Source: an uncultured Chroococcidiopsis sp. (GTDB lineage Bacteria > Cyanobacteriota > Cyanobacteriia > Cyanobacteriales > Chroococcidiopsidaceae). From it: a stretch of DNA of 54,363 bases. How positions within the stretch are numbered: the stretch's first letter is position 1; every line of letters starts with the position of its first letter. The notes under the pieces were generated by a model that was given only the letters and a program-made list of their open reading frames with translations, did no database searches and had not been told where the DNA came from. Position numbers and translations under genes: made by a program. The DNA lies in the NCBI GenBank assembly GCA_964248365.1, contig CAXTYC010000014.1, forward strand, positions 1 through 54,363. The letters are read 5' to 3'. Positions 48,404 through 53,789 of the stretch are shown in pieces.

Positions 48404-49090
48404 ATGTCCCCTGTTTCCTTGCGACTTTTACTTGTTGAAGATGATGAACTTTTTCGCCTTGGTTTGCACGTAAAATTGCAACAACAGCCAGATTTAGAAA
48501 TTGTCGCTGAGGCTGAGGATGGTGAGGAAGCAGTAGAAATAGTAAAGCGCTATCGGTTGGATGTTGTGATTTTAGATATAGGGCTACCTGGAATTGGTGG
48601 AATTGAGGCTTGTCGTCAGATCAAGCAGCAAAATCCCAAATTACCAGTTTTAGTGTTAACTTCCCATTCCCAAAAGTCTTTAATTACCAAATTAATTGAA
48701 GTGGGAGCAAGTGGCTACTGCTTGAAAGGTATTCCCGCAGAAACTTTGATATTAGCAATTCGCTCAGTTGCGGCTGGTGCTTCCTGGTGGGATCAAACTG
48801 CAACTACCCAGATTCGCGCTACGTTTGAGAATTCCGTTGCTAGTGATACAGCAGTCGATGAGTCAAATTTACCACTGACACGGCGCGAACAAGAAATTCT
48901 TGCTTTAATCGCAGCAGGTAAGTCAAATCAAGAGATTGCAGAAATTTTGTACATTACCCCAGGTACAGTTAGGGTACACGTTCATACAATTATACAAAAG
49001 CTAGGGGTACGCGATCGCACTCAAGCTGCCCTTTTGGCGATTCAAAAAAAGTGGGTAGCGGCGGAATTGTTATCTAATCGGGATGATTAA
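48404..49090 (+). CDS. NarL/LuxR-family response regulator
   Basis: LLVEDD, LDIGLPG, HTH LTRREQEIL..GKSNQEIA; ATG 48404 follows the kinase stop. Confidence 0.93.
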   Translation: MSPVSLRLLLVEDDELFRLGLHVKLQQQPDLEIVAEAEDGEEAVEIVKRYRLDVVILDIGLPGIGGIEACRQIKQQNPKLPVLVLTSHSQKSLITKLIEVGASGYCLKGIPAETLILAIRSVAAGASWWDQTATTQIRATFENSVASDTAVDESNLPLTRREQEILALIAAGKSNQEIAEILYITPGTVRVHVHTIIQKLGVRDRTQAALLAIQKKWVAAELLSNRDD

Positions 49091-49384
49091 ATTTATCTTG
49101 CCCTCATTGGTTTACTTCTATCGTTGGCATCCACGTTACTAATGCTCTCAAACTCTGCCCCCCTACGATCTCCCATCCATCGCTCATGAAAACTGGCAGC
49201 GATCGCCTATATACAGCATCTTGTTATCTACCATAGCAAAATATACAGCTGGGCATTTATGATCACGGCAATGCAAATGGATTTATCGCCTAGTGTGCTT
49301 GTTGCCAGCGATCTATTTGCCATTTATCATAAAAGTGATTGACGTATTGATGCTCGGACAACTAGTTGACGGTTTTATAAAGAT

Positions 49385-49603
49385 ATGGCAGGCAGGAAAA
49401 AGCTCGATCGCAAACAAATGCAAGCTCGCGTGGCAGAAGAAACACCTAACAAATTACACGAAATAGCTGCTGCTCTGGGGTATCTTTATGGCTCTGGCGC
49501 TTCTATCGGTACTTTCCTTGACGCAATAGCTGATAGAAAGCTCGTAGTAATTCCAGAGGAAGTTTGGAAGAAATTAGTTAATAAATCTTCTAAAAGTGGT
49601 TGA
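49385..49603 (+). CDS. Small basic protein, putative ribbon-helix-helix (CopG/Arc-like) DNA binder
   Basis: MAGRKK, strand-like QMQARV, two helical segments; fold inferred. Confidence 0.6.
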   Translation: MAGRKKLDRKQMQARVAEETPNKLHEIAAALGYLYGSGASIGTFLDAIADRKLVVIPEEVWKKLVNKSSKSG

Positions 49604-49628
49604 TATTTGCTATCACCTGCGGTAAAAT
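49600..49628 (+). promoter_or_regulatory. Sigma70-type sense promoter
   Basis: TTGATA-N17-TAAAAT. Confidence 0.55.
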
Positions 49629-49637
49629 ATAGACATC

Positions 49638-49704
49638 AAAAAGCACTTGGTTTCGTGCCTGAGAAACATCAAACCAAGTGCTGTGTCGCTTATAGGATTG
49701 ACAC
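49638..49704 (-). ncRNA. Predicted cis-antisense small RNA
   Basis: Minus-strand promoter at 49711-49740; stem AGCACTTGGTTT/AAACCAAGTGCT ending in a 5-T run on the minus strand. Confidence 0.5.
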
Positions 49705-50417
49705 ACATCAATTCTACCCAACACTCAACCTCGATTGCAACTAACTGGGCTAATTGCAAGGAAGATATTGCTAACCGGATACACGAGCGTAACCGCCGCC
49801 GCATTAAGGATGCTTTAGCAGATGGATGTGATTACCTGCGCCTGTCGAAGATCTTGCGCGGTGACACCTTTAAGAAAGAGTTAGAATCGATTGGCAAGAG
49901 TGCAGCCGAAGCAATGAAATACGCCAAGCTGTATCAGGTATTTGCTGGTTTTTCAATTGAATCTCTCGCAAGAGTTTCCCTCCCTACCTTGTTCGCTCTG
50001 TGTCAGAAACGATATCAACAGCTGGTGGTAAAGCTGCGATCGCTTCCTCCTCAAACCGAAGTGCAAATACAACAGCTGATGGCACAAAAGCGGGAACAGC
50101 AAAAAGCCGACAAGCCAAAGCGCGAGCGTAGCGGATTGATAAATCTTCCTTCCGGTGGTCGCGCTTTTCAATTTCCCCTGCTGCACGACGACGAAGTGAT
50201 TGCAAAGGTGTTGCGCTTGTTGGAGTACAGGGAAGATCTCACCCCAGTTCAATTATTAGGGGAAGCGATCGCGTTGTTATTCGAGCAAGAAGATCGGGTG
50301 CAGCGTCGTAAGCAACACCTGTATAAAGACTACCATCAGGGCGCTCAGCGCCTAAAAGACTGGCAGCATAACGCTAGGGTGTTGCAACGAGCAAAAGACG
50401 AAGGGATGATAACGTGA
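49698..50417 (+). CDS. Hypothetical helical protein (~237-240 aa), start uncertain
   Basis: Long open frame. Candidate starts are TTG 49698 or ATC 49707 (9 nt after AGGA); the ORF-track start at 49647 lies inside the hairpin. Confidence 0.7.
   Translation: MTHINSTQHSTSIATNWANCKEDIANRIHERNRRRIKDALADGCDYLRLSKILRGDTFKKELESIGKSAAEAMKYAKLYQVFAGFSIESLARVSLPTLFALCQKRYQQLVVKLRSLPPQTEVQIQQLMAQKREQQKADKPKRERSGLINLPSGGRAFQFPLLHDDEVIAKVLRLLEYREDLTPVQLLGEAIALLFEQEDRVQRRKQHLYKDYHQGAQRLKDWQHNARVLQRAKDEGMIT
49711..49740 (-). promoter_or_regulatory. Antisense sigma70-type promoter inside the 5' coding region
   Basis: Minus strand reads TTGCAA-N18-TAGAAT. Confidence 0.55.
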
Positions 50418-50497
50418 ATACAAAACAGTTTTATAAGAATGCCTAATCACGTACAGGCGATTCGAGAATTTAAGCTTTTAATGGGTACTAGCTTCCA

Positions 50498-50681
50498 ATG
50501 AGTTTATACGAGCAAGACTTTGACCAATGGACGCAACAAACCGCTTACTTTCTCAAGCACGCCAAAGAAGGAGGAACTCGACTCGGATGCGTTGATTGAG
50601 GAGATAGAAACATTGGAAAGAAGTGAGAAAAGATGCGTAAGCGCCCAAGTGAAGCGTAGTTATCGCGCACAGAACCGTTAA
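50498..50681 (+). pseudogene. DUF29 family N-terminal remnant
   Basis: MSLYEQDFDQWTQQTAYFLK, then frameshifted EELDSDALIEEIETLERSEKR; truncated. Confidence 0.8.
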
Positions 50682-50873
50682 CTTAGGACGATCCTTTCCA
50701 ACACCAGGAACAATGAAGGGGCATTTCCACCCCTAGACGAGCCATTTTTGTAAGAACTCTTTTGTAACTGTTCATAAAAATATTCAATTGATTTCACCTA
50801 CCTGATCCAAGTGCAGCTAAGCTTACTCTCGTGATTCACGTAAACAACACTGCTGCAAAAGAGGTATTGACAA

Positions 50874-51812
50874 ATGGCATATGTAATTGCAAGTGCCAAT
50901 ATGAAAGGAGGCGTTGGCAAAACAACCCTCAGTGTTAACCTAGCTACTTGTTTAGCCAAAGAGCATGGTAAACGAGTTCTCATTTTTGATTTGGATACTC
51001 AAATCAGTGCCACTCTTAGCTTGATGGCTCCTACTGAATTTGCTAACTATAGAAAAAGGAAACGGACTTTAAAGCATTTAATCAACCAAGTTATTCAACC
51101 AAATCCTCATTCCAAGATTACTATTCACGATGCAATTTATCCCTCGGTATGTAAAATAAACAATTTGGATTTATTGCCAGGAGATATTGAGCTTTATGAT
51201 GAATTTGTTGTAGCCCAAATGCTTCATGAAAAAGCCTTTGAAGTAGATAGGTTAGACTTTGAAGTTGTGTGGAATCGGTTTGAAAGAACCTTAATCAGGC
51301 AAATCTTACAGCCGATTATGCACAACTATGATTGCATTATTTTGGATTGCGCCCCTGGGTATAATCTCATGACTCGTAGCGCTCTGGCAGCCAGCGATTT
51401 TTATATCCTGCCTGCCAAGCCTGAACCATTATCAATTGTGGGAATTCAGCTATTAGAAAGACGCATTGCTGACTTGAAAAAAAGCCATGAAGCTGAGGAA
51501 AAAATCGGTATTCAATTAATAGGAATTGTCTTTACTATGGCTGGCAACTTGTTTACAGGTAGATACCAGCGGCAAGTTATGCAGCGAATTAATCAAGATT
51601 TTGTTGCTGACAAAATTTTTAAAACTCAAATACCAATGGATGTGAACGTAGCAAAAGCAGTTGATGGTTTTATGCCTGTTGTTTTGAGTAATCCTCAGTC
51701 AGCTGGGGCGAAATCATTCTCACAGTTAACTCTTGAGTTTTTACAAAAGTTGAATACTGCTGCTGAAAATAAACCCCAACAAGCTAACCAAAACTTTGCC
51801 ACAATCAGTTAG
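50874..51812 (+). CDS. ParA/Soj family ATPase (orphan)
   Basis: Deviant Walker A KGGVGKTT, DLDTQ, ILDCAPG. Confidence 0.92.
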   Translation: MAYVIASANMKGGVGKTTLSVNLATCLAKEHGKRVLIFDLDTQISATLSLMAPTEFANYRKRKRTLKHLINQVIQPNPHSKITIHDAIYPSVCKINNLDLLPGDIELYDEFVVAQMLHEKAFEVDRLDFEVVWNRFERTLIRQILQPIMHNYDCIILDCAPGYNLMTRSALAASDFYILPAKPEPLSIVGIQLLERRIADLKKSHEAEEKIGIQLIGIVFTMAGNLFTGRYQRQVMQRINQDFVADKIFKTQIPMDVNVAKAVDGFMPVVLSNPQSAGAKSFSQLTLEFLQKLNTAAENKPQQANQNFATIS

Positions 51813-53758: not shown

Positions 53759-53789
53759 TCTCGTTACCAAGCTCAGCCTGGTAACGAGA
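53759..53789. repeat. REP-like hairpin
   Basis: TCTCGTTACCA-AGCTCAGCC-TGGTAACGAGA; related core CCAGGCTGAGCCAGG near 24541. Confidence 0.65.

Follow-up and report, generated by a model that had tools for sequence, protein, structure and literature searches.

To combine a ribbon-helix-helix (RHH) repressor with a cis-antisense RNA that covers a ribosome-binding site is textbook logic. Plasmid pMV158, for example, holds an RHH-type gene, an antisense RNA and the controlled gene in one compact unit, copG-rnaII-repB. In IS10, with its pair RNA-OUT and RNA-IN, the antisense promoter sits inside the first codons and the RNA lies over the ribosome-binding site; CopA of plasmid R1 has a hairpin with a U-tail and a recognition loop. 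In phage P22, sar is a short antisense RNA over the ribosome-binding site of ant, and Arc and Mnt have the RHH fold. The subject here is a leader with similar ingredients, in front of a gene for a protein of 236 amino acids (the cargo), in 54,363 nucleotides of DNA from an uncultured Chroococcidiopsis sp. (contig CAXTYC010000014.1 of assembly GCA_964248365.1, positions 1 to 54,363, forward strand). This whole stretch is called the window. The best reading, with a probability of roughly 0.6, is that this is a portable control leader, found on at least three unrelated gene families, which likely silences its cargo by means of a small repressor together with an antisense RNA of short length. That reading builds on what can be read off the DNA, namely co-occurrence, synonymous constraint, strand asymmetry and insertion. 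The cyanobacterial leader family itself is apparently undescribed.

In P22 immI (mnt, arc, sar, ant), a small repressor gene stands in line with a downstream gene, in what the sections on this region call an exchangeable 'moron' insert (PMC2629481). The Reg576 regulon of plasmid p576 is presented, in the parts of its descriptions that deal with regulation, as an RHH repressor that acts on its own expression and on that of a variable group of genes sharing an upstream sequence, anti-restriction genes included (PMC6294495, PMC8708921). Those parts of the p576 and pLS20-family (EGeRS2) descriptions report neither an antisense RNA nor a leader hairpin. Synechocystis 6803 plasmid pSYSA (ssr7036/asRNA1/slr7037) has an abundant cis-antisense RNA on mobile DNA, for which the sections concerned propose loop pairing; there, asRNA1 is 153 nucleotides long, begins where the small gene has its stop codon, spans the coding sequence of that gene and governs plasmid copy number (PMC9978351). 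A 2026 screen of cyanobacterial RNA structures excludes, by the scope set out in its text, RNAs that overlap genes, such as antisense RNAs (PMC12873609). No description of the present leader family was found in Rfam or in the open literature searched, which does not cover subscription journals. Rfam gave no match at E<=5 in 49000-50900 of the window, and a search of 14 related loci likewise brought up nothing at gathering score.

At the window locus, a plus-strand open reading frame (ORF) for a basic protein of 72 amino acids (49385..49603) ends in a TGA that lies inside the -35 of a predicted sense promoter, TTGATA-N17-TAAAAT (49600..49628; -35 at 49600-49605, -10 at 49623-49628, start near 49635). 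Then come an A-run and a perfect 12-base-pair hairpin with core CCTGAGAAAC (49638..49682), its stem being 49642-49653 paired with 49671-49682 around a loop of 17 nucleotides. The Shine-Dalgarno (SD) sequence AGGA (49694..49697, plus strand) follows, and codons 2-12 of the cargo contain a predicted promoter on the opposite strand (49711..49740, minus strand), composed of TTGCAA at 49740-49735, 18 nucleotides, and TAGAAT at 49716-49711. An initial annotation of this DNA had claimed the ORF, the sense promoter, the stem, AGGA and the opposite-strand promoter, and all of them are there. It had also held that the latter would give an RNA of about 67 nucleotides, ending at a terminator that works in the minus direction only. 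This agrees with the layout. The A-run at 49638-49642 is a U-tail on the minus strand only, where its first U doubles as the last stem pair, and together with the hairpin it forms a predicted intrinsic terminator for that strand alone. A start at 49704 gives 67 nucleotides. The predicted antisense RNA (49638..49704, minus strand), placed from these promoter and terminator positions, spans the SD, the spacer and the hairpin, not the start codon. Folding of a 70-nucleotide stretch gives z -5.44 for the minus strand, compared with z -3.76 for the plus strand.

Set beside the described systems, the layout resembles P22 in its small candidate repressor gene in line with the target, in its predicted short antisense RNA over the target's ribosome-binding site, and in being an exchangeable insert. 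It differs in that the leader has no Rfam sar match, the cargo is not Ant, and there are no phage genes nearby. The leader also brings a promoter of its own, placed after the small gene and before the cargo, and in most relatives the RHH gene is divergent. Compared with pMV158, the cargo is not a replication initiator, it has no plasmid match, and the unit sits in a chromosome; the conserved main promoter of the leader is downstream of the small gene, not only upstream. Like Reg576, the main RHH family described below is also found beside ardA, on Nostoc plasmids. Unlike that regulon, the unit in the window is an insert of 1.7 kb in a chromosome and has no transfer genes; of the related leaders, only those of ardA are on conjugative plasmids, and most leaders are single chromosomal copies with an adjacent RHH gene of their own. 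Where asRNA1 of pSYSA starts at a stop codon, the RNA of the window leader would start at the cargo start codon and cover the 5' leader. In contrast to IS10 and R1, there is no transposase, Rep or Rfam match to the leader, and it is common to unrelated cargo families. By analogy, the leader likely works like P22 arc-sar-ant or copG-rnaII, and belongs to neither, because cargo and setting differ.

The comparison covers 47 non-duplicate loci from one family, referred to by number (L014 and so on). The cargo is of the Alr2735_N family in 11 of these, as in the window. Another 18 have a cargo with a Cys/His end, which has no Pfam match and which we take to be SWIM-like, and a further 18 are of the L018 type. 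Left out are duplicates, three loci with an unreadable start (L098, L107, L116) and 14 distant homologues (L079-L086, L091-L096).

A minus-strand -10 of the form TAnnAT lies over codons 2-4 in 41 of the 47 loci, compared with 22 of 2763 background ORFs (0.8%). If the frame-shifted form over codons 1-2 (ATG-xTA) is also counted, this becomes 45 of 47, and 183 of the 2763 background ORFs have either. Among the distinct N/H/Y/D-x-x start tripeptides, 24 of 25 keep the three bases of the hexamer that depend on codon choice, where N-terminal codon usage leads one to expect 5.7. Codon 2 is N, H, Y or D and codon 3 is any of eleven residues, with the T, A, A and T of the hexamer kept throughout. These are positions T1, A2, A5 and T6 of a -10, and between them the two central bases change, giving 11 different hexamers. 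Serine at codon 4 is written AGC in 7/7 cases, and third-position T is not enriched at codons 4-8 (28/99 vs 43.7 expected). The initial annotation had proposed looking for conservation of the antisense promoter in homologous loci. The -10 is indeed kept at synonymous sites, and the -35, as TTGC(G/A)A at 18 nucleotides, is found in 13 of 47 loci only. A near-identical strain, represented by a contig from run X1, has TTGCGA at this place.

Over this -35, many copies have the octamer GCGATCGC, presumably HIP1, at codons 9-12, where it encodes a common 'AIA' peptide. A variant of it occupies 49731-49740 of the window. It is a possible exchange point for cargos.

A leader hairpin is found behind the sense -10, which lies 4-30 nucleotides before it, in 40 of 47 loci, compared with 20 of 300 background ORFs. 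(In L018 the hairpin rule chose an upstream hairpin, and the true one was identified by direct inspection of the stems.) At least four A's precede the stem in 29 of these 40, and at least four T's follow it in 3. Because A precedes the stem and T rarely follows, only the antisense direction has a terminator tail. There are 26 distinct stems, which were tallied directly, as these hairpins are too divergent for an in-register MAFFT alignment. No G-T pair and a single A-C were met within the stems walked, which means that they are near-purely Watson-Crick and fold on either strand. The initial annotation had suggested checking the stem for covariation: stems differ in sequence yet pair, and between the window and L016 a T-A pair has become C-G, a compensatory change.

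Position by position, the window hairpin (49642-49682) set against L014:1746-1804 is identical at 29/41 bases directly and at 36/41 when inverted, with the flanks in the same orientation. Inverted loops are also seen in L099/L105, L072/L012 and L108/L110, among leaders that are otherwise co-linear. The loop has thus been inverted between its own arms, apparently more than once. The loop core CCTGAGAAA is found in the window, L016, L108 and L114, and cores like GCTACCAAC in others, on differing stems and cargos. A loop sequence that is kept and is free in orientation would fit pairing between sense and antisense loops better than recognition of an mRNA loop. The spacer from hairpin to start is about 20-120 nucleotides, often by way of tandem repeats. 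Such repeats are found in the ribosome-binding region of L009, L011, L013, L073, L074, L076, L100 and L103, and lengthen the predicted antisense RNA to 110-165 nucleotides.

An RHH-type gene of 45-90 amino acids adjoins 39 of the 45 loci that could be assessed, in line in 5 and divergent in 34. The in-line ones belong to the 72-amino-acid family, and 4 of these 5 loci were found through it. Among the loci found by cargo alone, an RHH-type gene is adjacent in 34 of 40. The main divergent RHH family, with 28 loci, matches CopG-family 6IYA at E 1.5e-5, and two other small-gene families reach the Pfam RHH_9 cut-off. Leaders of this kind thus commonly have a small RHH-type gene next to them. The 72-amino-acid family is upstream in 0 of 9 other assessable Alr2735_N loci (any small RHH-like gene is there in 3 of 9). 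The genes 3' of 72-amino-acid family members differ widely. In L014 and L016, members with a near-identical hairpin stand in front of another type of cargo, and in L018 and L019 they stand in front of a cargo from a third family. The three-part cassette that had been proposed is thus not a fixed one. Judging by these loci, the leader is conserved and the pair of small and large gene is not fixed.

The 72-amino-acid protein is a candidate RHH-type repressor from an unnamed cyanobacterial family, placed by its ORF and by homologue searches. It has 16 homologues, and the family occurs in 34 of 401 genomes of the order. The nearest named Atlas clusters are RHH-type (0.90-0.91), and there is a weak in-register profile alignment to the A4 small-gene family (E 0.04-0.07). 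Searches of Pfam, NCBIfam and the PDB gave no match to it, and metagenome scans unrelated matches only. The AF2 monomer is a poor model, with a predicted local distance difference test score (pLDDT) of 52. Beyond the closest relatives, family members often have two genes associated with them, a short ORF for an acidic product and a conserved gene of about 110 amino acids ending YYCG...LGIGR.DP, downstream in L017, L025, L040-L043, L049 and L055, and upstream in L020-L022 and L051. The profile also weakly matches the N-terminus of proteins of about 290 amino acids (L027, L028, L029), and by eye two of these resemble regulators of the WYL type.

The promoter of this small gene is predicted at 49302..49330 on the plus strand (TTGCCA-N17-TATCAT, by promoter scan), and L014 and L016 have a similar -35 and -10 at the same place. 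A candidate operator is present in two copies on the plus strand: AAAAGTGATTGA at 49331..49342, at the predicted start site of this promoter, and AAAAGTGGTTGA at 49592..49603, overlapping both the -35 that serves the cargo and the end of the small gene at its stop codon. The 12-mer AAAAGTGRTTGA is thereby found at both predicted sense promoters; it has 7 occurrences in the 5.58-Mb genome, 2 of them here. L014 has TTGACA-N17-TAGAAT at the position of the sense promoter, and TTGA(C/T) is at or near the small-gene stop in 15 of 37 loci with a small gene.

On conjugative plasmids of Nostoc and Calothrix, the main RHH family is divergent from ardA (L137, L138, L142, L149). The ardA leader has an inverted-repeat promoter region, a long 5' leader, an A-run hairpin, and a minus-strand TAGAAT just before the start, an arrangement found in 3 of 6 plasmid matches inspected. 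One such locus is on Nostoc 7120 plasmid gamma (L137:1380-2635, which is NC_003267.1 28436-29691). In a transcription-unit table for Nostoc PCC 7120, none of the 16 plasmid gamma rows lies over ardA or its leader on either strand, a table whose filters may lose short RNAs (PMC10287535). The same table has short antisense or non-coding units on plasmid gamma starting at 53781, 56244 and 56656, in a layout unlike the leader (PMC10287535). Elsewhere on this plasmid, L162 (NC_003267.1 55755-57470) has a gene for a 'copy number control protein', then a 1.4-kb spacer bearing two mapped antisense transcripts, and then a large gene. This is a literal copG-antisense layout, with a different structure.

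In the proposed mechanism, the starting point is an observation: sense -10, A-run, hairpin, SD and minus-strand -10 travel together as the cargo changes. The minus-strand promoter would make an RNA of 60-170 nucleotides (67 here) that stops at the hairpin and U-run. The loops of this RNA and of the mRNA would pair first, after which a duplex would cover the SD and block translation. Loop inversions would be tolerated because both loops stay complementary. More tentatively, the adjacent RHH-type protein may repress its own promoter and that of the cargo. In a newly entered cell both brakes would be absent, and the cargo may be made in a short burst and then shut off, as plasmid establishment genes are.

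Several explanations compete with this. The antisense promoter may act in cis, through collision or occlusion of convergent polymerases, with the RNA as a by-product and the hairpin there to stop this RNA and protect the 5' end of the mRNA. The predicted start sites, about 70 nucleotides apart and facing each other, suit such interference, and it would tolerate the variable spacer between hairpin and start. It would not need the loop cores that recur across stems and cargos and persist as exact inversions, which suggest that loop sequence matters, as it does in loop-loop pairing. On balance, interference as the whole explanation is unlikely.

Another explanation does without an antisense RNA: ATnnTA and the palindrome would be sites at the DNA level (operator, cruciform, recombination), or features of translation initiation. 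A cruciform would likewise be in keeping with inverted loops and with palindromes that are perfectly Watson-Crick, the octamer lies over the supposed -35 in many copies, and A-rich start regions favour translation. Weighed against this are the kept bases, which are exactly those of a -10, the neighbouring third positions, which have no T bias, and the A-run, which is one-sided, as a minus-strand terminator needs. This makes the DNA-level explanation rather improbable.

A type I-like toxin-antitoxin or addiction unit, with a toxic cargo and the antisense RNA as antitoxin, could account for double repression, solitary chromosomal insertions, and the loss of start or frame in several cargos. Yet the cargos across families are soluble, basic proteins of 140-370 amino acids (the 236-amino-acid cargo of the window is soluble and helical), not small hydrophobic peptides, they match no toxin family in Pfam or NCBIfam, and the unit is missing at its site in 5/5 congeners, so that this is very unlikely. 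Attenuation of transcription set off by the antisense RNA, of the kind known from pT181 and Inc18 plasmids, would also involve a 5' leader hairpin and a fully overlapping antisense RNA, and is hardly credible here, given that a U-tail follows the stem on the sense strand in only 3/40 leaders, that the locus has no plus-strand terminator-like site, and that leaders as short as 60 nucleotides leave no room for alternative folds.

This leaves the portable, antisense-braked leader as the preferred reading, against which a number of points must be held. Both transcripts are predictions, and loop pairing, repression and the burst on entry would follow from sequence features. The promoter scan of the locus is at chance level, with 4 sites vs 3.0 +/- 1.8 in shuffles, and terminator-like sites number 3 vs 2.0 +/- 1.2; the support for the promoters is therefore comparative. 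In that comparison, the 47 loci share one family and an ancestral start peptide, so their counts are not independent, and starts were chosen by eye, being the first in-frame ATG in 40 of 47. The canonical antisense -35 is missing in 34 of 47. By eye, the 14 distant homologues, which come from other families, have no hexamer at codons 2-4, and several of them do have a hairpin leader. The RHH fold of the 72-amino-acid protein is likely but unproven, and 6 of the 9 other Alr2735_N loci lack a small gene. The family-wide operator signal is weak: 3/30 loci have 10 or more of 11 bases in common between the upstream and downstream regions vs 1.7% in shuffles, and 17/30 have 9 or more in common vs 31%. 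A role in establishment is suggested by the ardA case only.

A much wider account is doubtful. In it, family-wide plug-in cassettes, made up of an RHH gene, an antisense-braked leader and a common N-terminal peptide, would capture unrelated cargos. They would have their origin in ardA-like establishment genes and would have spread singly through Chroococcidiopsis-like chromosomes without a recombinase of their own. Loop inversion would switch groups of mutual silencing, and each cargo would be an anti-defence or establishment protein that has gone unrecognised.

If the preferred reading is true, the leader family supplies dozens of naturally occurring pairs of antisense RNA and target that differ in stem and loop, and the natural loop inversions test kissing-loop specificity directly. 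It would also be a sequence handle on silenced mobile genes of unassigned function (one related leader is on ardA), and a source of repression parts for engineering cyanobacteria, compact and possibly orthogonal. The window copy itself, probably an allele in decay, is poorly suited to such tests.

The reason for this is its start codon. The cargo (49707..50417, plus strand) begins with ATC at 49707-49709, 9 nucleotides behind AGGA, where the Met of its homologues aligns. The X1 contig (depth 2.6, 3 differences in 160 bases) has ATG at 49707, the change being 49709 C>G. Because of this Met column and the X1 ATG, the cargo is taken to be 236 amino acids long with a non-ATG start. The large ORF of about 240 amino acids in the initial annotation does exist, with its start now corrected. 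A start at TTG 49698, directly behind AGGA and giving about 240 amino acids, or at GTG 49683, is ruled out by the homologue starts and the X1 ATG. On the basis of one low-depth contig and the homologue starts, the ATC copy is likely dampened further or a decaying allele. In a predicted mRNA fold (49690-49717) the first codons pair with the SD, and the mutated base of the start codon, the C of ATC, joins in. According to this model, such pairing would lower cargo translation further.

Contrary to the suggestion that the large ORF could not be assigned to a described family, it is Alr2735_N (PF27301, Pfam 38), a precomputed annotation on the cargo and on 20 of 21 homologues; our own Pfam search of the cargo gave no match to PF27301. 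The literature searched does not mention 'alr2735'. Profile matches to the cargo occur in 8 of 61 genomes, all from the same family as the host. The AF2 model (pLDDT 77.7) has a confident helical domain at the N-terminal end. Residues 43-138 align with KorB 8qa8 (Z 6.2, root-mean-square deviation 2.8, 92 aligned), KorB 1r71 (Z 5.9), ParB 6s6h (Z 5.1) and SopB 3mkw (Z 5.0), all of them below Z 8 and too low to discount a commonplace arrangement, and Foldseek gave no match to the model at E<=0.001. The C-terminal part is weakly RHH-like, with weak Antitox_RHH matches in 4 of 22 family members, and one distant homologue matches DUF3102 below the cut-off. A DNA-binding role may be inferred from these models.

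Other roles were considered for the cargo. Neither Pfam nor NCBIfam places it in a Rep family, plasmid searches found none of the three cargo families, and metagenome scans found no relatives of it. PHROGs has one weak match, to an unknown PHROG (E 0.023), and no Ant antirepressor. Toxin families are absent for all three cargo families in Pfam and NCBIfam, and for Alr2735_N in PHROGs. Rep, antirepressor and known toxin are thus without a supporting family match. The gene had been thought possibly toxic; nothing marks it as such, and its start codon is mutated here.

Several cargos are broken or start-less. Besides the window ATC, they include L014 (70 amino acids), L128 (35 amino acids) and the second units of L075 (AAG), L103 and L130. 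Lost starts and frames would fit a dispensable, decaying mobile cargo. In L103, L075, L087 and L130, units of RHH gene and leader are stacked in tandem, and of the cargo the outer units have no more than a stub; one outer unit has its ATG changed to AAG, and L103 has three RHH copies about 460 bp apart. In L157 a complete leader and an ATG AAT TCT A start are followed, after a few codons, by unrelated sequence.

The whole unit is an insertion of about 1.7 kb (49055..50758, ends approximate), placed between the gene for a NarL-type response regulator and a gene of the ParA family. This follows from the congeners, where these two genes are adjacent and the flanking matches are 21-163 bp apart in 5/5 cases, which is an empty site, and from a contig of run X1 without the unit that joins 49054 directly to 50759. 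Since the adjacent parA and response regulator are both conserved neighbours of the empty site, a functional link to either was dropped. The unit is chromosomal, among kdp genes, a sensor/response-regulator pair and parA, and no phage genes are nearby. No integrase, transposase, recombinase, transfer genes or terminal repeats were seen in the 1.7 kb. Named homologues come from Chroococcidiopsis, Scytonema millei and other cyanobacteria.

The same genome has six cassettes at five unrelated places. A strict scan finds the window copy only, and a relaxed one 5 further cassettes among 9 matches. The second cassette examined for an empty site, L152, is at a synteny break, and a third lies among insertion-sequence fragments. 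Behind the cargo, the window insertion also contains a remnant of a DUF29 gene (50520..50681, plus strand; Pfam DUF29 at 22.1 bits, cut-off 22.5, over 29 residues). A short repeat at about 50630-50670 overlaps this remnant, with copies on contigs C33, C11 and C41 of the same genome.

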